From the NCBI GenBank assembly GCA_016840465.1, contig JAEOSH010000026.1, positions 1 to 25,575 of the forward strand: a DNA stretch of 25,575 bases, written 5' to 3'. The translations under genes were made by a program, and so were the position numbers. The DNA comes from Candidatus Baldrarchaeum yapensis (GTDB lineage: Archaea > Asgardarchaeota > Baldrarchaeia > Baldrarchaeales > Baldrarchaeaceae). Shown piece by piece: positions 3,858-19,317 of this stretch; position 1 is the first letter of the stretch, and the number at the start of each line of letters is the position of its first letter. The notes under the pieces were generated by a model. That model had not been told where the DNA came from and made no database searches. It saw nothing but the letters and a program-made list of their open reading frames with translations.

Positions 3858-5105
3858 ATGGGCGATGACTATCTTTTCATTATGGCGACTCCCGAGGAGA
3901 TAAAGGAGGGAAAGACGACAGACATCTATTTTATCCGTACGGTCAAGATTTTAGAGGAGGACAACCTATCGAATGTTGTTGTGAATGCAGAATTCACTGC
4001 GAGCGGTTTTCCTGACAATTATCCATGGGCCTTCTTGGGAGGATTGAGAGACGTTGCCAAGCTTTTGGAGGGGCTCCCCATAGACGTTGATGCGATGCCA
4101 GAGGGTTCTGTCTTCTACAAGGAGGACTATTACGGTGTGAAGGAGCCCGTTATGGTCATTAGGGGGCCCTATGGCAAGTTTGCGATCTACGAGACTCCGG
4201 TGCTGGGATTTCTGTGTATGGGCTCAGGGGTTTTGACGAAGACCGCAAGATTGAGAAAGGTTGCCGGAGACGATGTCATATTGATTTCGTTCGGCGCTCG
4301 TAGGACTCATCCGGCGATTGCTCCATTTACTGCATTTTACGCGTACATTGGGGGATGTAATGCAGTTTCATGCGTTTTATCTGCTGAGAAGTTTTTGAAC
4401 ATGGCACCCGCGGGGACCATGCCTCATAGTCTCATAATAATATACAGTGTTGTTAAGGGCGACCAAGCAGAGGCGTGGAGAGCGTTTGACAGGGTGATGC
4501 CGCCTGAGGTTCCGCGTATAATGCTGTGTGACACTTATCTTGACGAAACCACCGAGAGCGTTAAAGCGGTTGAGGCTGTTGGTCCCGATAGGGTTTGGGG
4601 AGTGAGACTTGACACTCCAGGGTCTCGAAGAGGGAATTTTGCCGCAATAGTCAGGGAGGTCCTTTGGGAGTTGAGGGCGCGCGGGCTAAAGGGCAAAGTG
4701 TTCGTCTCGGGTGGTATTGACGAGGATGTCATACCGGAGTTGGTCAAGGCGGGGGTATCTGGGTTTGGTATAGGTTCCGCGATAGACAATGCCCGCATAA
4801 TAGACATTGCGATGGACATAACTGCAATATTTCAGAATGGGCAGTGGGTTCCGTGTGCGAAGCGTGGAAAGTTCTCGGGTGTTAAGAAGGTATATCGATG
4901 CCCCGACTGTCTGACCGATGCGATAACGTTGGAGAATGAGCCTAAACCCAAGTGTCCAAAGTGTGGCGGTGAGATGGAGAACATCTTACAGCCGCTGATT
5001 AGGAACGGAAAAATAGTCATGGAGTTTCCGGAGCCGAAGGAAGAAAGGGAATACGTACTGAAGCAACTGAAGAAATTGGACTTGAATAAACGTCCATGGG
5101 ATTAG
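3858..5105 (+). CDS. pncB: Nicotinate phosphoribosyltransferase with C-terminal Zn ribbon
   Basis: TDIYF, SFGARR, AGTMPHS, DTY, VRLDTPGSRRG, FVSGG, GFGIGSAI; CPDC...CPKC near the C-terminus. GGTGA RBS at 3847-3851. Confidence 0.93.
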   Translation: MGDDYLFIMATPEEIKEGKTTDIYFIRTVKILEEDNLSNVVVNAEFTASGFPDNYPWAFLGGLRDVAKLLEGLPIDVDAMPEGSVFYKEDYYGVKEPVMVIRGPYGKFAIYETPVLGFLCMGSGVLTKTARLRKVAGDDVILISFGARRTHPAIAPFTAFYAYIGGCNAVSCVLSAEKFLNMAPAGTMPHSLIIIYSVVKGDQAEAWRAFDRVMPPEVPRIMLCDTYLDETTESVKAVEAVGPDRVWGVRLDTPGSRRGNFAAIVREVLWELRARGLKGKVFVSGGIDEDVIPELVKAGVSGFGIGSAIDNARIIDIAMDITAIFQNGQWVPCAKRGKFSGVKKVYRCPDCLTDAITLENEPKPKCPKCGGEMENILQPLIRNGKIVMEFPEPKEEREYVLKQLKKLDLNKRPWD

Positions 5106-8100
5106 GTGCTGGTGTTATACGATTTCAGTAATTCGATGTCTGAACGCAGAACCCACTGCTTGTCCGGTTTGTATTTCAGATAGTATCCCGAAACAACCTT
5201 TCCTTCCATTTCTAATTGATTTAATAACTCCCTAATCTCATCCTCGTTGAGGCCCGACCACTCGCATATCTCATCTACCGTCGAGGGGCCATTGAACCAT
5301 AGGAACTTCTCTATGAGTTTCTTTTGGGCCAACCTCCTCGTTAAACTTTGGTAACGCTCCAATATTTCTGCTGGAAGGACGCGTTCCGGCAGATCCCATA
5401 CTATCATTGTCTTGCCTTTTTCGTCCTTTATTGTGTCCACGCGAATTATTAAGAAGTTGCTTTCCAGCCTCTGTAAGGAAACTCTCACATCGGAAATCTT
5501 CGCTTTCAGTTTCTTTTTCAATTGTATGATTGTTTGTGGGCCCTCAGCTTTTATTGTATCAAGGATCCTTCTGTCAAGGTCGTTGAGTGGAATGTTCTGT
5601 TCATACACCCTTCTGAAGATCGGGTACTCTTCGGTTACGATCCACAATGGTTGCAGGCCGCGCAGACATCTTATCCATAGTACTTTCCTTTCTCTCCACA
5701 ACTCTCTTGTTGCATTTTGTATTTCTTCCATGTTCATCTTCATTCGCTTTTTAAGGGAAGGTTCCTTATCCATTAATGCGTTTAGGGGACCGCAGTCTTT
5801 CAGTATTCTCACAATATCATCTTTTGTTGTTCCTAGAGAATCTTCTGTCAGACGTGACCTTCTCGCGTAGAATTTCTCAATGACCTCAGCCGGTATTGCT
5901 ATAAAAGTTAGGTTGCTGAGTTCTTCGTACATGTCCCTAGAGATCACCTGAGGAGTGGGTTTGTAGTCGACGAATTTTCCACTCAGGATCTCTCCGCCCA
6001 TTTCTAGGGATGAAAGTATTTTGCTTATCTCTTCGGCGGGTATTCGCGTGTATCTCTCTATTTCTTCCAGTGTTGATGGACCATTATTCCTCAGGAAGGT
6101 CATTATTGCTTCTCGTTTTGCCAGAGCAACGTCGTAGTTTTCTGCGGATTCTAAAATTGCGGGAGGAACTATCGACTCCCTCGCGCACCACAGGTTCTTC
6201 GTCGTGTACTTTCCATTTTTCTTTCTTTTTCTTCTATGTACCAGATATGCCTCTTCCAGAGACTTTAGTGCCTTCTTTACGGTTTTCACGTCCAGATTTA
6301 AGTCCCCGGCAATTTGTTCTTCCGTTGCCTTTCCTACAGTTCTCAGGTATCTTAGAACATTATTTTCGATGCGCGAAAGCGAGGAAATTTTCCTAAAGGC
6401 GGCGTAATATACGGGGTATCTTGCCATGGGGATATAACATGGTTTCTTGTACTTGAGGCAACGAACTTGGATAACTTTTCCTTCTTCCTCCAACATACCC
6501 AGCCATTGACGGACAATTTCGCGTGCCTTCTTATCGTTCTCCGCATGCACTCTTCTTACAATTTCGTCTTCTGGGAGCGCGCCGACATCAAATAATATTG
6601 TTAAGAGGTCATCGGGGGATCTTGCCATAGTTTCCTCAGTGAGGTGCTGTCGTTGCATGATCACACGTTCGACGATATCTCTTGGGAAAATCACTGGTGA
6701 TACCGGAATTCTCTCCATCTTCTCGGATATTCTCTGGAGAACTTTTCTATGCAATTCGCGCAGAAGTGTCTGCCTATCCTCCATTATCACTACATCGCTT
6801 ATTCCGACTAGGAGTATTCCGTGAGCAAAGGGCGATGGCACGTCGTGGGAGTGCAAGAAGTCAAACCTTATGTTTCCGCGTTCGATTTCCCTTAACACAT
6901 ACTCAGCGTTTTGTACGTCGAAAACGTCCTCTAGTATTTCCCTATATGTTTCTTTGACTACCGGGAAGTCCTCCCATTCTGAAATCAGGTCAAGAATTCT
7001 GGAAGCACGGAGTTGCTGTTTCGACAATGAAATTTCTACGCCCTTATACCGCTTAAGGATCATGAAACTCCTAGCGGCGACATGCTGGAATCTTCGCCTG
7101 AACAATTCTGTGTTCTTTACTGCTCTACGTAAAACCTCCCTCAATTCTCTCCAGTTCAGCAACTCCGGTATTTCGTGTATGTCCATCCTCTTATCGCTCG
7201 GAAGGACGAGGAGAAAGCCGTCGTCATTAACTGCGGTTCCAACATTTGCCCTAATCAAGTTTGAGATTTTATACGCGTATGCGCGGGAAAGAGCATCATT
7301 GACCCTTCTTCCAAATGGCGCATGGAAGATTATGTGTTGTTTTCCGCTATCATCGAAGAACTCCTCTATCAATATGACTCTATGTGTCGCGATTTTTCCT
7401 GAAAAGCGGAGTTGTTCGAGGAAGTAATTGATAATGCTGTTTGCAGCGTATTCGTCAAGATAATACTCCCTTACTAACCACTCCCTCACGCTGTCTTCGC
7501 CCTCGGTAAGTAGCCGTCGCACGACTTCCTCCCTAAATTTTCCGACTTCTATTGAAAGATCGAAGCTTCGCGGAAGCATTTCACCTACCCATGTTGGTAC
7601 CGTCGGTCTCTTTCCGAAAGCGCTCCTCACGAAGACTGTCATACCGCTGGTCGTGAGGTATTCGTATGTTTTTCCTCCTAGGACAAAGACATCTCCGGGA
7701 TTCAACCTTTCAAGGAATTTCTCGCTCAGCATTCCAATTTTCATGCCAGTATCTTTGTCGATGACCTTGAATTCCGCCTCTTCCGGTATAGTTCCAACGT
7801 TAAGGAAGTATATCATCCGAGAGGATTTCTTTCTCCCAAATTTCCCCTCGGAAAGATCAAGCCATATCTTTCTGTAGACTCCCGCGTACTCGAGGGGGGC
7901 ATATTCGCCACCTAGAAATCTCAGTACGGACAGATAGTCGTCCCAGCTGAGATCGTGGTAGCAGTACGAGCACCTTATCAGTTTATATGCGTCGTGGATG
8001 TCCCACTTGGCGTTAATCGACATTCCAACTATGTGCTGCGCCAGGACATCTAAGCAGTTTTTAGGTATTTGCACGCGATCTATCTTCCCATCATATGCTG

Positions 8101-9328
8101 CTTTTATCAAAACGGTACATTCTATTAGGTCATCTCTGTCGAAAACTATGAATCTTCCCTTGGACACTTCATGAAGATAATGTCCGGCTCTGCCGACTCG
8201 TTGCAGCCCCTTTGCAACGCTCTTTGGGCTTCCTATTTGTATTACCAGATCAATGTATCCGATGTCGATTCCGAGTTCAAGTGAGGTAGAGGTGACCACC
8301 GCCTTTAGTTCTCCGCGTTTTAGTTTGTCCTCAACGGTCAATCTTGTGTCTCGCGATAGGCTTCCATGGTGAGTTGCAATGTAGTCTATTAATTCGTCTC
8401 CTATGAACTGCTTGAGGTGGAAGGTAACGCTTTCGGCGCCGCTTCTTGTATTCGTAAATATCAGTGTGGTTCTATGCTTCTTCACGAGGTCTCTTATCAA
8501 TTCGTACATTCGGGCGTTAACATACGCGTAATCGGATCTTATTAGGTCCTTGACCGGGCATACGACCCTTATATCCAGTTTCTTTGTCTCATACACGTCG
8601 ACAATGGCGACATCTCTAAGTTCACCATCTTCCCTGTAACCCACAAGCCACTTTGCGATTTCCTCGAGTGGAGCCTGTGTTGCACTTAAACCTATTCTGA
8701 TGAACTCCCTGCCTATCATCCATCTTAGTCTTTCCAAGGAGAGCGAAAGATGTACCCCCCGTTTGTTATCGCATAGCTCATGTACCTCGTCCACTATAAC
8801 GTACCTGACAGTTGAAAGCTTTTGGCAGAACTTGGGAGCGCATAGCACTATTGCTAGGCTTTCTGGGGTTGTTATAAGGATGTGCGGTGCTTTTCTAAGC
8901 ATCTTTGCTTTTTCGCTCGATGAGGTGTCACCTGTACGGACGAACACTCTAATTTCCGGCAGTTCTATTCCCATCTCTTCGGCGACTTTGCGAATTCCCT
9001 CGAGCGGGAAAAGTAAGTTCTTTCTTATGTCGTTTGCTAGGGCTCTTAAGGGTGATATATACACGACGTAAACGCCATCGCCGAGTTCTCCCCTCTCTCC
9101 TAACTCGAAAAGCCAGTTTATTACAAATAGGAACGCGGCCAGAGTCTTCCCACTTCCGGTTGGGCTGAAAACGAGAACATTCTTTCCCTCTTTAATCAGG
9201 GGTATCGCCCGCCGTTGAGGAGGAGTGAAGGTTTCGAAGGTGCGGCGAAACCACTCTGCCACGTAAGGCCTAAGCATTGCAAGTATTTCCTCGTCGCTCC
9301 AGTCCCTGTTGACATATATTATTGCCAC
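5102..9328 (-). CDS. lhr: Lhr-family SF2 DEAD/H helicase with a long duplicated AlkZ/HTH_42-like winged-helix C-terminal extension (1408 aa)
   Basis: FTPPQ, PTGSGKT (Walker A), YISPLRAL, DEVH, GLSAT, HHGSLS, LELGIDIG, QRVGRAGH, LDVLAQHI, GRRVNDAL. The core of ~880 aa is followed by two 264-aa repeats. GGTGA RBS upstream of the GTG start. Confidence 0.95.
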   Translation of the reverse strand: MAIIYVNRDWSDEEILAMLRPYVAEWFRRTFETFTPPQRRAIPLIKEGKNVLVFSPTGSGKTLAAFLFVINWLFELGERGELGDGVYVVYISPLRALANDIRKNLLFPLEGIRKVAEEMGIELPEIRVFVRTGDTSSSEKAKMLRKAPHILITTPESLAIVLCAPKFCQKLSTVRYVIVDEVHELCDNKRGVHLSLSLERLRWMIGREFIRIGLSATQAPLEEIAKWLVGYREDGELRDVAIVDVYETKKLDIRVVCPVKDLIRSDYAYVNARMYELIRDLVKKHRTTLIFTNTRSGAESVTFHLKQFIGDELIDYIATHHGSLSRDTRLTVEDKLKRGELKAVVTSTSLELGIDIGYIDLVIQIGSPKSVAKGLQRVGRAGHYLHEVSKGRFIVFDRDDLIECTVLIKAAYDGKIDRVQIPKNCLDVLAQHIVGMSINAKWDIHDAYKLIRCSYCYHDLSWDDYLSVLRFLGGEYAPLEYAGVYRKIWLDLSEGKFGRKKSSRMIYFLNVGTIPEEAEFKVIDKDTGMKIGMLSEKFLERLNPGDVFVLGGKTYEYLTTSGMTVFVRSAFGKRPTVPTWVGEMLPRSFDLSIEVGKFREEVVRRLLTEGEDSVREWLVREYYLDEYAANSIINYFLEQLRFSGKIATHRVILIEEFFDDSGKQHIIFHAPFGRRVNDALSRAYAYKISNLIRANVGTAVNDDGFLLVLPSDKRMDIHEIPELLNWRELREVLRRAVKNTELFRRRFQHVAARSFMILKRYKGVEISLSKQQLRASRILDLISEWEDFPVVKETYREILEDVFDVQNAEYVLREIERGNIRFDFLHSHDVPSPFAHGILLVGISDVVIMEDRQTLLRELHRKVLQRISEKMERIPVSPVIFPRDIVERVIMQRQHLTEETMARSPDDLLTILFDVGALPEDEIVRRVHAENDKKAREIVRQWLGMLEEEGKVIQVRCLKYKKPCYIPMARYPVYYAAFRKISSLSRIENNVLRYLRTVGKATEEQIAGDLNLDVKTVKKALKSLEEAYLVHRRKRKKNGKYTTKNLWCARESIVPPAILESAENYDVALAKREAIMTFLRNNGPSTLEEIERYTRIPAEEISKILSSLEMGGEILSGKFVDYKPTPQVISRDMYEELSNLTFIAIPAEVIEKFYARRSRLTEDSLGTTKDDIVRILKDCGPLNALMDKEPSLKKRMKMNMEEIQNATRELWRERKVLWIRCLRGLQPLWIVTEEYPIFRRVYEQNIPLNDLDRRILDTIKAEGPQTIIQLKKKLKAKISDVRVSLQRLESNFLIIRVDTIKDEKGKTMIVWDLPERVLPAEILERYQSLTRRLAQKKLIEKFLWFNGPSTVDEICEWSGLNEDEIRELLNQLEMEGKVVSGYYLKYKPDKQWVLRSDIELLKSYNTST
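5105..6688 (-). repeat. Intragenic tandem duplication of a ~792-nt (264-aa) module, visible at protein level
   Basis: FPRDIVERVIMQRQHLTEET vs IPAEVIEKFYARRSRLTEDS, and FLRNNGPSTLEEI vs FLWFNGPSTVDEI, are each offset by exactly 792 nt (for example, Gly codons at 6080-6082 and 5288-5290). Confidence 0.9.
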
Positions 9329-9487
9329 GGAGCATGTTCACCCCATGTGACGGACAGGTATTCAGAAATATCCACTAATCCACTGTTATAAATTCTTGGA
9401 TTACAGGGAAGGATGGAATTAATATTGGGAACTTATCAGTTTAACTATTGGGACTAAAAGTTAGAATTTTCGCGTGGAGGACAATTG

Positions 9488-10291
9488 ATGGCAGAAAGCA
9501 CGCGCATCACGCTCCATAAAGGTGATGTGGAGATTGCATCAGGAATTCCCGCAATATTTGTGAAATCGATAGGCGCGGTCGTCATAGCGGATCTTCATAT
9601 TGGTTACGAGTGGGCGCTTGGTCAGCAGGACATTCATCTTCCGTTATCACAGTTCCCCGAGATGCTTGACGATATCAAGAGGCTTATCGAAACATACGAT
9701 CCGGATATACTTATAATAGATGGCGATCTCAAGCACGAGTTCAGTAAGGCGACTGCGCAGGAGTGGAGGGAGGTTCTAGATCTGCTCCATTTCCTCGACA
9801 AAAACATTCGAAAAACGTACGTTGTACGGGGCAACCATGACAATTTTATAAGGGGTTTCTTCCGGCGATACGAGCACGTGGATTTCGTGGAACCCTACTT
9901 ATTACTCGAGGATTACATGTTCTTGCATGGTGATAAGGAAATTCTCGACATCAATTCGCGAAAGGACGAGTATGAGGTTCTAGTAATAGGGCATGAGCAT
10001 CCCTCCATGATAATAGTGGACGAGGTCGGTGCTAGGGTCAGACTGAAAGTTTTGATGACGGGTCCTATGAAAATAGGACGAGAATTAATAGTGTTGCCAG
10101 CGTTTTCTCCGATAATGAGCGGAGTCGAGGTTGTGACAATAAGAGTTGGTGCGGGTGGTTTTGCCTTACCACAGAGTCAATTTCTATCCCCAATTTTGAG
10201 AAATTATACAGAGATAGGCGAGATGAGGGTTATTGGAATCGATAAGGAGGGAGGCGTGCTTCCCTTCCCGAAAATAGCCGATCTTTTATGA
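9488..10291 (+). CDS. Calcineurin-like metallophosphoesterase (COG1407, Lhr-associated type)
   Basis: ADLHIGYE, DGDLKHEF, RGNHDNF, LHGD, GHEHP, LPAFSP. GGAGG RBS at 9476-9480; divergent from lhr. The ORF track starts at TTG 9485. Confidence 0.9.
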   Translation: MAESTRITLHKGDVEIASGIPAIFVKSIGAVVIADLHIGYEWALGQQDIHLPLSQFPEMLDDIKRLIETYDPDILIIDGDLKHEFSKATAQEWREVLDLLHFLDKNIRKTYVVRGNHDNFIRGFFRRYEHVDFVEPYLLLEDYMFLHGDKEILDINSRKDEYEVLVIGHEHPSMIIVDEVGARVRLKVLMTGPMKIGRELIVLPAFSPIMSGVEVVTIRVGAGGFALPQSQFLSPILRNYTEIGEMRVIGIDKEGGVLPFPKIADLL

Positions 10292-10292
10292 A

Positions 10293-10787
10293 TTAGGATG
10301 TTGGCGTTGCCCTTGCCATACTTCGCAGCTTTTCAAGTTCCTTTCGCATCTCGCTTTTAAGTTTTTCAAGGACATCGAAACTTGGAGACTTAACCGATAT
10401 GCTTTCTATCGGAGGTTTAGAAGGTGTTGTACTTGGCGGAGCCGGCGCAAGCGCACCTCTACCCTCACTAGGCGATATAGAGGGCGTTCGTGCTGGCGCT
10501 TTTATAGCGGGACTTGGCGCAGGCGCAGCTATTGGAGGTTTCACACTCCGCAATTCTCTTACTACGTCTTCCATTTTACTCAATCTACTTTCGAGGTCGG
10601 AGATTCTGTCTTTTAGCGACTGTATTACAGGGAATTGATCAGCAAGCTTTTCTAATCTTCTCAGTCTACCATCTATGTCGTTTAACGCGGTTATTACCAT
10701 TTTTATGAAGCCTTCTATTATCTCACCTATCTCGTCGAGCGTTCGCGGCTTCTTCTGCGCTGCCCTTTTCCTACCAAATACCGATAT
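10293..10787 (-). CDS. Hypothetical protein: N-terminal coiled coil, Pro/Ser/Ala-rich linker, C-terminal amphipathic helix
   Basis: ORF track 10293..10700. The frame stays open to TAG at 10802-10800, adding ISVFGRKRAAQKKPRTLDEIGEIIEGFIK. AGGGGGT RBS lies 7 nt before an ATA codon at 10787. The start is uncertain (alternative ATG 10700). Confidence 0.7.
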   Translation of the reverse strand: MSVFGRKRAAQKKPRTLDEIGEIIEGFIKMVITALNDIDGRLRRLEKLADQFPVIQSLKDRISDLESRLSKMEDVVRELRSVKPPIAAPAPSPAIKAPARTPSISPSEGRGALAPAPPSTTPSKPPIESISVKSPSFDVLEKLKSEMRKELEKLRSMARATPTS

Positions 10788-10868: not shown

Positions 10869-12839
10869 TTAACCTAGTATATATAGGATTTGTGAGGCTA
10901 GATTAATTCCAAATCTATAAACGTTTTCCAAGCTTTTAGCATTTCTAGCAAGAGGGTACATACTCCCATGATACCTAGACCTGAACACCTGTAAGCATCT
11001 GCGTGCGAACTCATCGACCCTCTTCAATACTCTGAGGATCATTGATCGCGTGGGGACGCGCAAGAGGATTTTATCTCCTTCTTTTCTAAGTTCCGAACAC
11101 CTATGACGAACAACATCACATAGGGATACGAAGCTTATGCAGGGGAGTGCTCCTAGCAAAAGTAGCACTGCTGAGAGAAATTTGTATGCCTCAGCGATGA
11201 ATACATCGATAGAAAATCTAATATCGCCGTTCGTTAGCAAATCAAGTGCATATTTGAAGCTCTCGATCGATTTTCTCATCACATTGGCGCATATGTCGAG
11301 AACTTTTTTACGAAATGAATTTTCATCCCTAGAGGCCTCGAAAAGTTGTGCGAAGTATGGAACAGCACTTGACAGTATCGCTCTTATGATTTCAAGAATT
11401 AATTCTTCGGGCACACATAGTGGTGTTTCATCTCTTATTGCGACAACTCTGGGTACTAGTGTCATGAATAGAGACCTTAAGCCCTCGTATATTTGGGATG
11501 CTAGAGATTCGACCATAGACTTGCTCGCTTTCAATGGAATTTTTGATAAAAAGTTGCGTGTGACGAGCATTTCTATGGTCGTTCGACTGAAAGGATACAT
11601 GTGGCCGTTCTTGGATTTAATGACTAGGAAGTCTTGTGTCGATACGTAATATTGATACCTTGTTGAGAACTCTCCCGTTCCGTCAATGCTATCCAGCGCC
11701 CTGCAGACGCTCCAAACTATCTCATCAGATCCTACAATTGCGGATCCTCTCAGAGAGTTCACAATACTGTCAATGACCGATAGGGCTATTGAGACGTCTA
11801 TATTTGCACGTATCAGCGATTCGAGAATTTTTTCGTACGAAAATTTTGATAGTTTTCCATCACGTAACACTACATATTTCTTTTCCGAACTCAATGTGTC
11901 GAACAGTTCTTTTATTGGATTTTTTAGCCTCCCTACGTAATTTTCTTCCCAAAAACTCAGTATTCTTTCAAGTTCTCCTATTAATGCTTTACCTTTTGGT
12001 AGTATTTCCACCCACCTGTTGGATCTCTTGACAATCTCTGCGTTCTCGAGTTTTTCTAGCATACTATTAACCAAGGAAGGATCATGATACTGCTCAATAT
12101 CGAGTATAGGGAAGACTTTCTCGTATAGAAGGCCAAGATCACCTTCATACATGTGTAGCAGGAAGAGTAGAAGATAAATAGTTGCGGTTTCATTCCCGAA
12201 ACTTTCTAGTTTGTTTGCAACCTCCTTTAGATCCTCATATAAGTCCAGAAGCCATGAACCGATGGTGGATAATCTTATAATGTCTCGTTCTACCTTTTCG
12301 ACGACCCCGAGACTTTCCAAGCGTTGCATTATTGATGCATTAACAGAAATATCCGTAGATGTGGAAAGATCCGGAACTTGAGAGTAAGGACGCTTCGAAA
12401 GTTCTGTTAGAAGTTTATGAACGTAGGGGTCACATTCCTTTATAAGAATCATTATATCAATTATGAGCCTTAGGCTCTGTAACTTCATCAACAAGTCTAC
12501 CTTTTCATCGGAACTAAGGTCCTCGTCCTCGACCTGACTTACCGATATCCTATTCATGATCATTCCCTGTTTTTTAAGGAAATTTCCCAAATTCTCCTCC
12601 AAGATTTTCATCGCCGACTCGGCGGATTTTTTATCTATGGCCTTAATTACGAAAATTGCCTCCATTTCGTCCTCTATTATCTTCCAGCCCCTGATACGTG
12701 CCCCTACCTCTCTTACTTGCGCTTCCACTTCTTTCATCAGTTCTTGGAGGTCGTAAATTATTTTCCTGTCAAAATTGTTCAATTGATAAATGGCGGTGAG
12801 CATGTATCTTTTCGAGCGATTGCCGCTATATGAATACAT
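10869..12839 (-). CDS. Unrecognised multidomain protein: ferredoxin/ACT-like N-terminus, two winged-HTH, two ATP-cone-like domains, HEPN-like C-terminus
   Basis: wHTH wings MQRLESLGVVEKVERDIIRLSTIG and LEKLENAEIVKRSNRWVEILPKG; ATP-cone KYVVLRDGKLSKFSYEKILESLIRANID; second cone-like LVIKSKNGHMYPFSRTTIE; HEPN-like AEAYKFLSAVLLLLG...FRSRYH. Alternative start ATG 12803. The gene is certain, the domain calls are by eye. Confidence 0.6.
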   Translation of the reverse strand: MYSYSGNRSKRYMLTAIYQLNNFDRKIIYDLQELMKEVEAQVREVGARIRGWKIIEDEMEAIFVIKAIDKKSAESAMKILEENLGNFLKKQGMIMNRISVSQVEDEDLSSDEKVDLLMKLQSLRLIIDIMILIKECDPYVHKLLTELSKRPYSQVPDLSTSTDISVNASIMQRLESLGVVEKVERDIIRLSTIGSWLLDLYEDLKEVANKLESFGNETATIYLLLFLLHMYEGDLGLLYEKVFPILDIEQYHDPSLVNSMLEKLENAEIVKRSNRWVEILPKGKALIGELERILSFWEENYVGRLKNPIKELFDTLSSEKKYVVLRDGKLSKFSYEKILESLIRANIDVSIALSVIDSIVNSLRGSAIVGSDEIVWSVCRALDSIDGTGEFSTRYQYYVSTQDFLVIKSKNGHMYPFSRTTIEMLVTRNFLSKIPLKASKSMVESLASQIYEGLRSLFMTLVPRVVAIRDETPLCVPEELILEIIRAILSSAVPYFAQLFEASRDENSFRKKVLDICANVMRKSIESFKYALDLLTNGDIRFSIDVFIAEAYKFLSAVLLLLGALPCISFVSLCDVVRHRCSELRKEGDKILLRVPTRSMILRVLKRVDEFARRCLQVFRSRYHGSMYPLARNAKSLENVYRFGINLASQILYILG

Positions 12840-13701
12840 ACAGATGATCCTCCGCGTAAAATCTATCGATATTTATTCCACCTCGTATTTTCATTAGATT
12901 TCGCTGCCTTAAAATTATATTTAAGATTTTATTTCGCTCCTTCAGATCAAGATCCTCGGATGTTCGGGAGAGGAGTTTTAGGGGGACGTTTACGAAAAGG
13001 GGGCGTGCTGGTATTATGTGGCGTGTCGTCTTTGGAGGGAAGACTTCTCCTCTCAGGGCGACTTCCACGACATCCTTCTTGGCGATGGGGGGTGTTGCCA
13101 TGATTGCGTTGGCACCTGATTCTCGTAACGCAAGTGCATCCGCCTGGTAGGTTATCTTTGCGCGAAATGTTGTCGTTAATATTCTTTCTAATCTATACAC
13201 TTCGTCATAAAGGGCCTTTATGCTCAATGTTTCTTCAGGTAATATCAGAATTGCGCTTTTCCTCTGTTTTAACATTATTGCCGCAATTGCATTCTTAGAA
13301 TTCAATTCTTCCATTGCGACGTCGATATTGCATTTTTCTGTGCAATATTCCTGCGAGATCTTACTTACCATGTCATCTATTGGACCTTCCAGCCAGATCT
13401 CTCGATACCAATTACGGACTTTAATGTGAGGGTCTTCATATCTCACGAGGCAGGCGACAATGTACTCATAACCTAGCTCTCTTAGGGCGTAGTATCTATG
13501 CATTCCGTCTAATATAACGCGGGTTCGTTCATCAACTATTATTGGATTCATGAGGATAGAGGATCTTTTTATTTCCTTTACCAGTTTTTCGAGGAGGTGG
13601 GGTACTACCATCTCATGAGGATAGAGATCAGTCAACTTTAAAATGGATATTTTGAGCGTGAATATAGTGTGATCCGGGAGAAGGTGATTAATTACGAACA
13701 A
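12826..13701 (-). CDS. serK: SerK-like ParB/Srx-fold protein (putative ADP-dependent free serine kinase) with C-terminal extension
   Basis: LYPHEMVV, NPIIVD, LDGMHRYYAL, VRNWYR, RGEVFPPKTTRHIIP match the motifs of Thermococcus SerK (PHE, DGHHRW, FSPKTTRH). GAGGTG RBS before TTG. Confidence 0.72.
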   Translation of the reverse strand: MFVINHLLPDHTIFTLKISILKLTDLYPHEMVVPHLLEKLVKEIKRSSILMNPIIVDERTRVILDGMHRYYALRELGYEYIVACLVRYEDPHIKVRNWYREIWLEGPIDDMVSKISQEYCTEKCNIDVAMEELNSKNAIAAIMLKQRKSAILILPEETLSIKALYDEVYRLERILTTTFRAKITYQADALALRESGANAIMATPPIAKKDVVEVALRGEVFPPKTTRHIIPARPLFVNVPLKLLSRTSEDLDLKERNKILNIILRQRNLMKIRGGINIDRFYAEDHLYVFI

Positions 13702-13765
13702 GTTTGTAGCACCTCATCTGTTCTAAGTAAAGATTTGAACGTATTTATCAAAAAGTTGACGAACA

Positions 13766-14776
13766 ATGGCGGTGCCTGATATGCGAAAATTGCATTTAGA
13801 GTACAATGGCGGAATACTTTTAGAATACCAAGAAAAACGCATTCTGATAGATCCTCACGGGAAAACGGTGAAAAACCCCGATATTGTGATAGTTTCTCAC
13901 GCCCATAGTGATCATAGTAGCGGAATCTGGAGTCCTAGGCTCAGAAGTGCATATAAGATAATGAGTCCGGCAACGAGGAAAATACTTGAGAGGCGGAGAG
14001 GGAGAAAACTTACAAACGTCATTGAATTGTCCGAGGGAGAATATTTGGACATTGGAAGCATCAGAATTCATACAGAAACTGCCGGACACTGTGCGGGCAG
14101 TTTGCAATTTCTCATATCGTTTAAAAATTTGGATGTTGTTTACAGTGGTGATTTTTGCCTTGAAAGGAGAGTAATTTTGAATGCGTGTCGGCCGTTAAAG
14201 GGTGATGTGCTGATCATGGAGGCTACGTATGGCAATCCGAGATACATATTTCCTCCTCGCACCACGTTATATACGCGTTTTAAGAGTTGGCTGATGGAAA
14301 TGTTCGAAAAATATCAGGGAGTGATCGTAAAATGTCGAAGCTTAGGCACCGCACAGGAAGTTACAAGGCTCATTTCGGAGCTTAAAGGAGCCCAGATATT
14401 TGCGCATGCTTCAATAGCTGAGATGAATAGGGTACACGAAGAGTACTATAACAACTTAGGGGAGTATTACGAGTTTTGCGGTAACTTAGATTATATGAGT
14501 GGGATTCTGCTGGTGCCCCTAGGGGCTAAGATGAAGATTAGAAATCAAAGTCTTGTGAAGTCCTTTGTAAGTGGGCGTTTTGCAATATCTGGTTACAGAT
14601 ATTCCTTCCCAATAAGTTCACACGCGGATTTTGTCCATTTGATAAAGTACGCGCGGGAAAGCCAAGCAACTGATGTTTTTACGGTATACGGGTATGCTGA
14701 AGACCTTATTACTTATCTGCACGACGAACTTGGAGTTTCGGGACACCCCATTAAAAGAAGAAAATTGATGAAGTAA
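13766..14776 (+). CDS. Metallo-beta-lactamase / beta-CASP nuclease (similar to the ligase-associated DNA-damage-response exonuclease family)
   Basis: SHAHSDH, AGHCAGS, YSGDF, DVLIMEATYGNPRYIFP, SLGTAQE, ISSHADF. No KH domains, so not aCPSF1. Confidence 0.85.
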   Translation: MAVPDMRKLHLEYNGGILLEYQEKRILIDPHGKTVKNPDIVIVSHAHSDHSSGIWSPRLRSAYKIMSPATRKILERRRGRKLTNVIELSEGEYLDIGSIRIHTETAGHCAGSLQFLISFKNLDVVYSGDFCLERRVILNACRPLKGDVLIMEATYGNPRYIFPPRTTLYTRFKSWLMEMFEKYQGVIVKCRSLGTAQEVTRLISELKGAQIFAHASIAEMNRVHEEYYNNLGEYYEFCGNLDYMSGILLVPLGAKMKIRNQSLVKSFVSGRFAISGYRYSFPISSHADFVHLIKYARESQATDVFTVYGYAEDLITYLHDELGVSGHPIKRRKLMK

Positions 14777-15106: not shown

Positions 15107-16612
15107 TTACTCAAGTACTGAGGACAAATATTCGTCCAGAAGTTCTAAGACCTTAGGAAGATATTTAATGGGAATCGTTATAGCGCATGCAGCTTTATGT
15201 CCACCGCCATCAACTCTAGGGTCTATTTTTCTAAATATTTCTTTGAGTCCAGCGAAGAACTTTCCAACATTCAAGTTTTTCTCGGAAAGTTCAAGTGGGG
15301 CTCGAAAGCTTATCTTTACCATTCCCCTCATAGCCGGATCCGTGTGATATGCTGCAACCACATGCGGTATCCTCCTATTTTTCAATTCACGCTTCATGAG
15401 TTTTGTTGCGATAACTCCTGTCACCTTCTCATTTATCATGTTTGCAAAGTTGTAGAACACAAAGTTGTTATAATATTGCGGCTTTACAAAACCCGATCTT
15501 ACGGCTTCCAGAGCCTCTCTGATCAAAGATCTATACAATCGATAATTCTTCATGGCTTTTTCAACGGCAACTATGTCCCCCCAGAGGAGAGAGAACGCTG
15601 TTTCATAATCGCTTTGCCTAGTGCAACTATTAAGAAACGTCGCCAGTTCACGTGGGTCTAGGCTGAACTTTTCCAGTTCGGATCCTTTATATACTGTCAG
15701 TTCGTATACCTCATTTCTTAGGGATTCCACGTATTCCACGAACTCGTCTTCGTTGTTTACCGATGTTGCAAGGAACACCTCCAATTCTTCCAGTAATCTC
15801 TTCTTTTCTTCTTCTGAAAGGTCCTTTAATCTCCTCCAGTATCGATGTCCGTTTTCTTCCTCGTAAATTTTAAAACCTTTTGAAATAAGCCATGCAGCGC
15901 ACTTAGAGGGATCAGAAAGGGGTTCTGGCAACTTGGGACTATGGTGTGCTATTGCAACGGGTAGCGGTTTTGTATATCTGCCATATATTCCGATGTCCTC
16001 CCAGAAGTCAACTGCACCTATCTCTTTCGCGAATACTAGTACATCTCTGTTTAAACCGATAAGTCTGCCATATTTGACATTTTGGAGGTCGGCAACTGCG
16101 CCTAGGACTGCAAGAGCTGCTATCTTTCGCCCCCAAACGGTGTCCCAGAATTCCTTATCGAAAAGACTGTAAATTAGGAGAAAACATGTTACACTTCCGG
16201 AACACTCCGTCATATCATTTATTCCATGAAATATCGGGTTAAGGTGTCTCTCTGATACCCACACTTCAGGCTCATGATGATCTAAGATTACGTAGTTCGG
16301 AAACTCCCTTGCAATAACACTTTCATTTCCGGCCCCGAAATCGCAGAATACAGCTCTGTGGTAGCCTTCATTCATCTTCCTCCTTATTTTCTCAATTACT
16401 GGCTCTGACAAGTCGTGTATTATTAAAAAGTCGACATCACACCCCATTCTCCAGAGTCCCATGTACATGAGTGCGCCGCTTGATATTCCATCACCATCGG
16501 CATGACAAATCACCAGCGTTGGTACATTTTCTCGGAAATGCTCCCTCGCAATTTCTCGTGCTTGTTCAAGCATTCGCAAATGTCTCTGGTCATGTAACTT
16601 TAACTCTACCAT
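15107..16612 (-). CDS. recJ: Archaeal RecJ-like DHH/DHHA1 phosphoesterase (GAN/Cdc45-related family)
   Basis: ICHADGDGISS, FCDFG, ILDHHE, HLNP, LGAVADLQ, KISFR, DGGGHKAAC, plus the WRRLKDLSEEEK insertion typical of archaeal RecJ-type proteins. Confidence 0.85.
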   Translation of the reverse strand: MVELKLHDQRHLRMLEQAREIAREHFRENVPTLVICHADGDGISSGALMYMGLWRMGCDVDFLIIHDLSEPVIEKIRRKMNEGYHRAVFCDFGAGNESVIAREFPNYVILDHHEPEVWVSERHLNPIFHGINDMTECSGSVTCFLLIYSLFDKEFWDTVWGRKIAALAVLGAVADLQNVKYGRLIGLNRDVLVFAKEIGAVDFWEDIGIYGRYTKPLPVAIAHHSPKLPEPLSDPSKCAAWLISKGFKIYEEENGHRYWRRLKDLSEEEKKRLLEELEVFLATSVNNEDEFVEYVESLRNEVYELTVYKGSELEKFSLDPRELATFLNSCTRQSDYETAFSLLWGDIVAVEKAMKNYRLYRSLIREALEAVRSGFVKPQYYNNFVFYNFANMINEKVTGVIATKLMKRELKNRRIPHVVAAYHTDPAMRGMVKISFRAPLELSEKNLNVGKFFAGLKEIFRKIDPRVDGGGHKAACAITIPIKYLPKVLELLDEYLSSVLE

Positions 16613-18084: not shown

Positions 18085-19317
18085 TTAGAGATCTTCGCTG
18101 TGCACTCTGAACAGATCTATGTCTCCCGGTTCCTTTGGTACCTGTGTTGCTAACTGGAATAGGAACTCGCGTGTTGATCTCTCAACGTCACGACTTTGGG
18201 TTATGTATCTGCCGACTATCAAAATATCTGCTCCCATTGCGAGGGCTTCTGGAACCTTCTCCGGTACTATACCTCCTGCGACTGCAATTAGTATTTTATG
18301 CCCCTTGAATTTCTCCTTTATCTCTCTTATCCATCCCCACCGAAGATCTTCCTTTGTTTCAACATCTATTGCCCTATGTAGGATCACAACATCTGGAAGT
18401 TCATCCAGCGTTTCCAGTTTTGCGACCGGGTCGTTGACGTACATCATATCGACAAATGCATATATTCCTAGCCTGCGGGCCTCGTAGATGAACTTATTTA
18501 GAGAATCGGAGTCTGCGAGTCCGCTAGCTATCACACCATCCGCGGTTTCCTCATATGCTATGTCTACTTCGACCTTGCTTACGTCTAAAGTCTTGAGGTC
18601 AGCGACTATGAATGCATCACTTGCAACGCTACGTATTTGCCTGATTACTTGCGCGCCGTACCTCTTAATAAGTGGCGTTCCGGCTTCAAGGATTATTCTA
18701 TCGCTTTTAGGTAATTGTTTGACGATTTCCAGAGTCTTATTGATATTTGGGATATCCAGTGCTATCTGGAGGTATGGTGGGCGCCAGAGTCTGTTTGCTA
18801 TACGGAATCCTATATGAGGATGTACTGCTCTGTCCTTATCGTACATCAATTTGTCTATTGACGGGTAATTCATCAGTGCACGTCTTATTGCAAGTTTTGT
18901 CGCACTATAGTTATAGTTATAAAGCTTTCTGATATCTTTAGCTTTTGGACTGACAAAAACACTTGCAATTATTACCCAGTCATCTATCTTCTCTATCGGA
19001 ATTATTCCATCTTCTACCGCATCTGCTACTGCTTTCGCAACTGCAGCCTGTACCGGACCGAATACTATATTCGCTTGATCCAAGTTCTTGATCGTAACTT
19101 TAGGAACTATAAGTGTCCATGGCTTTGCTGGCAGATTTGGACGTATTACTGCGAGGAGCGGTGTATGTCCCATTTTGGGGTTTGCAAACGCCTCGGAGAA
19201 CGCCTTTCCGACGGGGCCGTCCTTATCACCTATTATTACTTCCACATGAGCGATCTCATCTCCCTTACCAACGCACGCCTCTCCTATCAGGAAGGTTTTC
19301 TTAGCAGAATTCTCCAT
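18085..19317 (-). CDS. fae-hps: Bifunctional formaldehyde-activating enzyme (H4MPT hydro-lyase) / 3-hexulose-6-phosphate synthase
   Basis: Fae domain [52 protein letters not shown]; Hps domain [35 protein letters not shown]. Confidence 0.93.

Follow-up and report, generated by a model that had tools for sequence, protein, structure and literature searches.

The archaeon Candidatus Baldrarchaeum yapensis encodes a protein of 656 amino acids (aa) in which an ATP-cone, followed by an apparently degenerate second one, is joined to a ferredoxin-like domain, one or two winged helices and a C-terminal helical bundle. We analyzed a stretch of 25,575 nucleotides (nt) of its contig JAEOSH010000026.1 (hereafter the window), where this protein, which we call the cone protein, is encoded on the minus strand (10869..12839) directly downstream of a gene for a kinase resembling the free serine kinase SerK. 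The architecture of the cone protein is new and is assembled from known parts; neither this architecture nor the gene pairing is found in any described family. Given its domains and its pairing with the kinase gene, the likeliest role of the cone protein is to sense nucleotides and regulate serine/phosphoserine metabolism. In the specific form that we favor, and hold tentatively at a little under even confidence, it is an NrdR-like, adenine-nucleotide-gated winged helix-turn-helix (wHTH) regulator of the serine-kinase operon.

Pairing with a SerK-like kinase gene

The most informative fact on the cone protein is its near-obligate pairing with the gene for a SerK-like kinase of the ParB/Srx fold. 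In 12 of the 14 resolvable loci, from which two loci cut by contig ends are excluded, this gene immediately precedes that of the cone protein on the same strand, often with an overlap (the adjacent pairs are those of the window, G027, G301, G302, G305, G306, G106, L004/5, L009, L043, L044 and L045). Paired loci come from the phylum of the window, from Thermoprotei and from Asgard. G301-G306 represent one genus, and the independent paired lineages are perhaps eight, over three phyla. In a 13th locus, on the Njordarchaeia contig L013, the kinase gene is one gene away, behind a SAM_HAT gene on the opposite strand. When 400 genomes of the window's phylum were scanned, a full-length or near-full-length cone protein was present in nine, across five families, and the full-length partner was always accompanied by the kinase except in G012, where the contig breaks off directly before that partner's gene.

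Within the window, the kinase open reading frame (ORF; 12826..13701, minus strand, 291 aa) begins with TTG, preceded by a GAGGTG motif at 8 nt. The ATG of the cone protein lies inside this upstream ORF, with an overlap of 14 nt, and has a GGAGGA Shine-Dalgarno-like motif 8 nt 5' of it. The conserved overlapping order and the internal Shine-Dalgarno motif imply a coupled, roughly stoichiometric synthesis of the pair. An abutting or overlapping gene order kept across three phyla, with a Shine-Dalgarno motif inside the upstream gene, also favors the main alternative, which we consider unlikely but worth following through the evidence. According to this alternative, the cone protein would be an allosteric regulatory or adaptor subunit that binds the SerK-like kinase, and its cones would couple kinase activity to adenylate/deoxyadenylate levels. 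The mechanism would be nucleotide-dependent oligomerization, as in ribonucleotide reductases (RNRs), and the kinase would convert serine to O-phosphoserine or the reverse. A complex prediction for the two proteins, each given as an alignment, returned an ipSAE of 0.01 (mark 0.32) and counts neither way.

A shorter form of the partner was found in family f16, where proteins of 318-373 aa follow the kinase gene (L055:1473-2591 in G310, L051:2897-3850 in G033 and L050:2089-3051 in G308). They have neither ATP-cones nor HEPN-like bundle and match no Pfam family, and their homology is limited to the half of the cone protein that holds the ferredoxin-like domain and the wHTH. Since the short partner has only that half, we consider it the core and the cones a sensor add-on. 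The same proteins argue against a regulatory subunit, because neither the cones nor the HEPN-like bundle can be the essential contact with the kinase. In family f12, proteins of 332-336 aa downstream of the kinase (L048, L052) showed no relation to the cone family by hidden Markov model (HMM) or jackhmmer searches, and no Pfam match.

A small archaeal family of hypothetical proteins

When 1.84 billion representative sequences were searched exhaustively with HMMER, 27 proteins of the cone family were returned at E-value ≤ 1e-3, most of them 550-610 aa long. All named homologues are called "hypothetical protein" and derive from metagenome-assembled genomes of Thermoprotei/Thermoproteales, Asgardarchaeia and Njordarchaeia. 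Full-length homologues in other archaea share 19-30% identity with the cone protein, which is itself present in public sequence collections. The AlphaFold2 (AF2) model, built from a 21-sequence family alignment, has a mean predicted local distance difference test (pLDDT) score of 82.5. The full-length homologues, the model and the public records together indicate that the ORF is a real gene. It exists as the initial annotation of the window had described it, and the segments proposed there match the modelled secondary structure one-to-one.

That annotation had also failed to recognize the combination of domains, and for good reason: apart from the ATP-cone, Pfam, NCBIfam and PADLOC hold no family covering the protein. 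A word-indexed homologue search returned only the protein itself, and feature searches of the ESM Atlas gave no usable match, either with the whole protein or with its N-terminal domain alone. We found no paper mentioning such a protein in the literature on ATP-cones combined with ParB or winged helices in archaea. DNA nearly identical to this stretch occurs in metagenomes of sediment, seawater and hydrothermal vents, and none of the sequencing runs that contain it is listed as RNA.

The kinase partner

By NCBIfam and structure-sequence alignment, the upstream gene encodes a SerK-like protein. It aligns end to end with the free serine kinase of Thermococcus kodakarensis (5x0b, E-value 3.6e-18) and with Pyrococcus furiosus PF0380 (1vk1). 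Across the SerK-like region it resembles SerK (T. kodakarensis TK0378) and SbnI, and it retains the catalytic motifs of SerK, namely Glu30, DGxHR and KTTRH, which align with 5x0b and 1vk1. Glu30 would act as the catalytic base, as it does in SerK. Among 26 SerK-like homologues, H29-E30, D65-G66-x-H68-R69 and K224-x-T226-R227-H228 are invariant. The protein differs from SerK and SbnI in its scores against the corresponding NCBIfam models (93.3 bits for SerK, NF053625, below the cut-off of 380, and 40.6 bits for SbnI) and in an extra conserved C-terminal tail of approximately 45 aa, which characterizes a kinase subfamily of approximately 285-300 aa. Furthermore, no ATP-cone partner gene has been described for SerK or SbnI.

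The upstream neighbour is the only SerK-family gene of this genome. A SerK-like gene of some form occurs in at least 79 of the 400 genomes of the phylum, and beyond the phylum the subfamily extends to Bathyarchaeota, Nezhaarchaeales, Njordarchaeales and Thermogladius, a wider range than that of the cone family.

The identity of the kinase bears on two of the alternatives. SerK enzymes use ADP or ATP (PMC5120207), and it would make sense to regulate such an enzyme by an adenylate sensor, as the subunit alternative proposes. The second alternative, which we regard as improbable, is that the ParB/Srx-fold enzyme phosphorylates the cone protein and thereby toggles its regulatory state, by analogy with sulfiredoxin, which phosphorylates a protein side chain, and with the minimal nucleotidyltransferase (MNT) enzymes that AMPylate their HEPN partners. 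The Srx branch of the fold does have a protein substrate, and Srx and SerK have been summarized as ATP-using enzymes of the ParB/Srx fold (PMC12704722). In addition, several serine residues are conserved throughout the cone family (S101, S334, S341, S418, S441 and S569), and the fold matches of the C-terminal bundle include a HEPN toxin in its AMPylated form (8xdj). Against such a switch, the kinase retains the motifs common to free-serine kinases, and T. kodakarensis SerK is inactive on peptide serine (PMC5120207). The other neighbours of the kinase genes also indicate metabolism of free serine and O-phosphoserine, as described below.

Serine metabolism around the kinase genes

Partnerless members of the kinase subfamily are found beside genes of serine metabolism. 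One of them abuts a gene for an ACT-ACT-HAD protein with the architecture of a SerB2-like phosphoserine phosphatase (L054:2950-4212, G296), and another lies near a SerA-like D-2-hydroxyacid dehydrogenase gene (L049:3850-4875, G025). These SerB2-like and SerA-like neighbours support a serine/phosphoserine role of the subfamily. Glycine-cleavage genes adjoin the subfamily gene in Thermogladius. Among the paired loci, L009 and L043 have an aminotransferase gene nearby and L044 a phosphoglycerate mutase gene. The subfamily is thus near SerA-like, SerB-like and aminotransferase genes, likewise to SerK in Desulfurococcales, where Makino et al. reported a similar clustering of serK with such genes (PMC5120207). 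A 2026 study also argues that remote SbnI-like DUF1015 proteins function in the synthesis and use of serine (PMC13759103).

The genome of Ca. B. yapensis encodes the O-phosphoseryl-tRNA synthetase SepRS (G000:C1:58251-59789, L046; 549 bits, cut-off 381) and therefore requires free O-phosphoserine to produce Cys-tRNA.

Genomic context and the ParB-like fold suggest one further alternative, namely that the pair is a module for chromosome or DNA organization, with a ParB-CTPase-fold protein and a wHTH adaptor, like AspA-ParB of pNOB8, and with the cones sensing nucleotides. The only Pfam match of the kinase is to ParB_N and is weak, CTP and not ATP is reported as the ligand of a SerK-like archaeal protein (PMC12704722), and repair genes lie close by in the window (Lhr, a metallophosphoesterase and an MBL-fold protein). 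However, the kinase has no HTH or dimerization domain and aligns with SerK from end to end, including the catalytic Glu. The annotated neighbours include no ParA-like gene. The repair/nuclease-type neighbourhood of the window is not conserved at other loci of the cone family, whereas the metabolic neighbours recur. For these reasons we consider a DNA-organization module very improbable.

Tandem ATP-cones

The first ATP-cone (aa 318-404; 11628..11888, minus strand) is the best-conserved part of the family. It scores 26.6 bits against PF03477, above the gathering score of 25.8, and shows a β-β-α-α-β-α-α order of secondary structure when the AF2 model is read with DSSP, folding as a β-hairpin that caps a four-helix bundle. 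Eleven of the 21 family members match PF03477 at E-values up to 0.05, and the alignment of this region with standalone archaeal cones reaches an hhalign probability of 98.9% over 74 columns. These results bear out the clear ATP-cone that had been annotated at about 11880-11650. R326, G328, F333, K337, S341 and D386 are conserved. Of the nucleotide-site columns, G328 is present in 21/21 members and R326 in 15/21, and the position of K337 is basic in 19/21. By our own alignment, we take R326 and K337 to occupy the places of the phosphate-binding R10 and K21 of Escherichia coli NrdA.

The second cone (aa 405-492; 11364..11627, minus strand) has the cone fold without the conserved nucleotide-binding signature. 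Its modelled secondary structure is β-β-α-α-β-α, with a pLDDT of about 90. In a structure search of the ESM Atlas with aa 402-495, six of the seven nearest entries were ATP-cone families (standalone, NrdD, NrdR and NrdA), at TM-scores of 0.53-0.65 by query (best 0.65/0.63), values that rest on the Atlas's own lower-confidence model. The top Foldseek match of the whole model was the tandem-cone NrdA of Pseudomonas aeruginosa (5im3, E-value 1.2e-4). Sequence comparisons returned little: the region has no Pfam match in this protein or among the 21 members, its profile found nothing meaningful among Protein Data Bank (PDB) sequences, and the hhalign probability was 11.6% with cone 1 and 6.2% with standalone cones, both alignments being in register for the hairpin only. 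An HMM of the region, run against a few hundred ORFs, matched one unrelated cone at an E-value of 1e-3. The degenerate second cone proposed at about 11630-11370 thus found support in its fold and no significant sequence signal, and we accept it on fold evidence with moderate confidence.

Small standalone ATP-cone proteins (frames of 101-223 aa) also occur in other genomes of the phylum (L025-L027, L031, L032, L035, L041 and L042). They share a motif directly after the cone, W-x-F/Y-Y-D-R-x-V-K, and are not NrdR-like.

Winged helices and the ferredoxin-like domain

Of the two winged helices that the initial annotation had placed on the wing motifs at 12330-12270 and 12070-11980, both wings are present in the model (aa 180-190 and 270-279), and the second wHTH is much the better founded. 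It spans aa 212-305 (11925..12206, minus strand) and is modelled as three helices followed by the hairpin 270-279. The family profile of this region matches SSO2273 (E-value 5.3e-5), F-93 of SSV1 (7.1e-5) and MarR (1.1e-3) in the PDB, and five of the 21 family members match HTH_45 of Pfam. By fold and profile similarity it is a solid winged helix of MarR/DtxR type (MarR/DtxR-N/TrmB), and it is predicted to bind DNA. Resemblance to bona fide DNA-binding regulators such as SSO2273, F-93 and MarR supports a transcriptional regulator and argues against a mere subunit of the kinase.

The first winged-helix-like unit (aa ~139-210; 12210..12425, minus strand) is weak and varies between lineages. In the model it consists of helices 139-149 and 164-176, the hairpin 180-190 and helix 192-210, with a pLDDT of 52-81. 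Its Pfam matches are marginal (HTH_24, E-value 0.039; HVO_A0261_N, 0.17), and several homologues are gapped or deleted across this region of the family alignment. We take it to be a variable accessory.

A helical linker joins this unit to the N-terminal ferredoxin-like domain (aa 12-102; 12534..12806, minus strand), which shows in the model the β-α-β-β-α-β pattern that had been noticed from the sequence at about aa 13-103. G46, W52, E56, D57 and S101 of this domain are conserved in the family. No match to the ACT or RAM families of Pfam was found in the protein, and the best structural matches of the domain are ferredoxin-like families other than ACT and RAM.

A HEPN-like bundle that lacks the catalytic motif

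The C-terminal domain (aa 496-656; 10872..11354, minus strand) is a five-helix bundle. Its best fold matches are proteins of the HEPN/KNTase_C clan, namely 3c18, ANT(4') (6nlt), LinB (3jyy) and the MNT-partnered HEPN protein 5yep_B. Designed helical bundles score similarly. A Foldseek search against the PDB gave nothing at E-value ≤ 1e-3, with designed bundles at the top, and the profile of the domain matched only designed helical proteins among PDB sequences. The resemblance to HEPN that had been annotated is suggested by the fold matches, and not by the Pfam model of HEPN (PF05168), which matched none of the 21 family members at E-value ≤ 0.05. The R-x3-H noted in place of the canonical R-x4-6-H is indeed present (R620-x3-H624) and is a peculiarity of this protein. 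Across 20 homologues there is no conserved R-x4-6-H and no conserved His column. The cone protein differs in these respects, and in the lack of a sequence-level match, from the HEPN/KNTase_C clan (HEPN-MNT toxins, ANT(4'), AF_0298). The bundle appears HEPN-like in fold and lacks the nuclease chemistry, and neither motif nor sequence makes it a member of HEPN.

These data leave little of the second option of the initial annotation, a nucleotide-gated effector, which would act as a HEPN RNase for toxicity or defence. Among the fold matches of the domain, the best do belong to the HEPN clan, but the family has neither the catalytic motif nor a HEPN Pfam match, and the chromosomal context is housekeeping. 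We consider this reading the least probable of all, with hardly any weight. A defence system had also been considered and was dropped, as neither the cone protein and the kinase nor the two flanking genes had a match in PADLOC. The subunit alternative fares better with this domain, since its best fold matches (3c18, 6nlt, 3jyy and 5yep_B) are helical domains found as partners of enzymes that handle nucleotides. The bundle would then cap the nucleotide site of the partner, as KNTase_C and HEPN do for nucleotidyltransferase domains.

A possible nucleotide-gated regulator of the kinase operon

The ATP-cone and the profile similarity of the wHTH make a nucleotide-sensing DNA-binding regulator, already suggested by the initial annotation, still the best reading of the cone protein. 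Our data cover the domain folds, the conservation within the family, the pairing of the genes and the serine-metabolism setting of the kinase; that the protein binds nucleotides and DNA, which genes it targets and whether it activates or represses them are the parts that we infer. The protein would be a sensor-regulator of the one-component type that belongs with the SerK-like gene upstream. Its N-terminal half, with the ferredoxin-like domain and the winged helices, would be the output module and also the evolutionary core. The C-terminal half, composed of the intact cone, the degenerate cone and the non-catalytic HEPN-like bundle, would be an add-on for nucleotide sensing and oligomerization. 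Binding of ATP, ADP or dATP to cone 1 would shift the protein between oligomeric states, for which the degenerate cone and the HEPN-like bundle would provide interfaces, and the state reached would in turn set the binding of the wHTH to the operon promoter. The serK-like operon, and perhaps other genes of serine, O-phosphoserine or cysteine metabolism, would then be expressed according to the nucleotide status of the cell. More speculatively, the ferredoxin-like domain could receive a second, metabolite input. In the putative promoter of the kinase operon (window about 13702-13765, 64 bp), inspection by eye revealed one palindrome with 4-bp arms, which we judged not meaningful.

Several known systems have parts of this design. 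NrdR, the bacterial ATP/dATP-sensing repressor of RNR genes, also joins a DNA-binding module to an ATP-cone. NrdR is about 150 aa long and consists of an N-terminal zinc ribbon and a single cone, whereas the cone protein has no zinc-ribbon match in Pfam or NCBIfam. Its DNA-binding-type part is instead made of the ferredoxin-like domain with one or two winged helices, and it has the degenerate second cone and the HEPN-like bundle besides. Its gene is paired with that of the SerK-like kinase and not with RNR genes, and the hosts are archaea. The cone protein is thus an ATP-cone-based regulator with NrdR-like logic and not a member of NrdR. It shares with the class Ia RNR subunit NrdA of P. aeruginosa (5im3) two consecutive cones, of which the N-terminal one is conserved and the second degenerate, but in NrdA these regulate a covalently attached reductase, and the cone protein has no attached catalytic domain. 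In archaeal one-component regulators of the Lrp/AsnC (feast/famine regulatory protein, FFRP) and TrmB types, a wHTH is likewise joined to a domain for ligand binding, ferredoxin-like or other, and metabolic genes lie beside theirs. The wHTH of the cone protein shows profile similarity to MarR, TrmB and HTH_45. The cone protein differs from them in that the ferredoxin-like domain comes first and has no RAM or ACT match in Pfam, in its far larger size and in the presence of cones.

Some observations weigh against a regulator of this kind. The PF03477 match of cone 1 spans only positions 1-42 of the 88 of the model, and where the canonical V-x-K-R-x-G has its first Lys, the cone protein has Leu325 and its relatives have K, R, H, L or Y. 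The locus L006 encodes a cone protein with no kinase gene within 5 kb. Overlapping and apparently translationally coupled ORFs across phyla are more typical of the subunits of a complex than of a gene and the transcription factor that controls it, and winged helices may also make protein-protein contacts. Finally, the kinase subfamily is frequently found without a cone partner, for example in Bathyarchaeota and Thermogladius. This last point also argues against the subunit, since the kinase works without it in many lineages, and against phosphorylation of the cone protein by a kinase that often has no such partner.

It is possible, though we doubt it, that the pair is an undescribed archaeal two-gene module in which the tandem-ATP-cone/HEPN-like sensor directly gates the ParB/Srx-fold serine kinase or is modified by it. 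To our knowledge, ATP-cones are known almost only as the switch of RNRs and of the repressor NrdR. For the subunit alternative, archaeal 2-phosphoglycerate kinases, which carry an N-terminal ATP-cone, would offer an earlier case of a cone attached to a small-molecule kinase. If true, the module would be the first enzyme system beyond ribonucleotide reduction to be controlled by ATP-cones, and it would tie the status of adenylates and deoxynucleoside triphosphates to the supply of O-phosphoserine for SepRS-dependent cysteine coding.

Whatever the mode of action, the family sets a conserved and a decayed cone in a new setting, with archaeal winged helices, a HEPN-like bundle and a link to a serine-kinase-like gene. 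If the cone protein is the nucleotide-gated transcriptional regulator that we favor, it would be an archaeal analogue of NrdR logic in amino-acid metabolism and a candidate regulator of O-phosphoserine supply where Cys-tRNA is made through SepRS. It would also be a natural example of a sensor cassette, made of the cones and the HEPN-like bundle, that was joined to a simpler ferredoxin-like/wHTH partner. Moreover, it would offer a functional handle on the SerK-like subfamily, which is widespread in uncultured archaea and unannotated.

Other genes in the window and at related loci

A gene for a SAM_HAT protein (SAM hydroxide adenosyltransferase/halogenase-like) lies on the opposite strand directly upstream of the cone protein both in L013 (L013:5878-6699) and in L006 (L006:4087-4893). 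The two loci are syntenic, and the kinase position is occupied in L006 by an unrelated protein of 347 aa with a weak asparagine-synthase-like match. A gene for a QRPTase/NAPRTase-like phosphoribosyltransferase is found within a few kb of the pair in the window (3858-5105, plus strand) and in a Thermoprotei locus (L043:6533-7774, minus strand). This shared neighbour may be due to chance or be a remnant of synteny.

In the window, the gene of the cone protein is followed on the same strand, after about 170 nt, by one for a coiled-coil, Pro/Ala-rich protein of 135 aa (10293-10700, minus strand). It has no family match, apart from one spurious repeat match, and is not conserved beside the homologues of the cone protein. 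The pair is flanked by genes for a metallophosphoesterase (9485-10291, plus strand), an MBL-fold protein (13766-14776, plus strand) and a DHH/DHHA1 protein (15107-16612, minus strand). Scans of the window for tRNAs and Rfam families returned no match. An Lhr-type helicase of 1408 aa (5102-9328, minus strand; DEAD, Helicase_C, WH_Lhr, DEAD_assoc) has a long C-terminal extension with several winged helices and two AlkZ-like matches. Further away, the window encodes a Fae-Hps fusion (18085-19317, minus strand), a sign, along with the gene content, of its archaeal origin; in this fusion a formaldehyde-activating enzyme is joined to a domain of the OMP-decarboxylase/HUMPS family.

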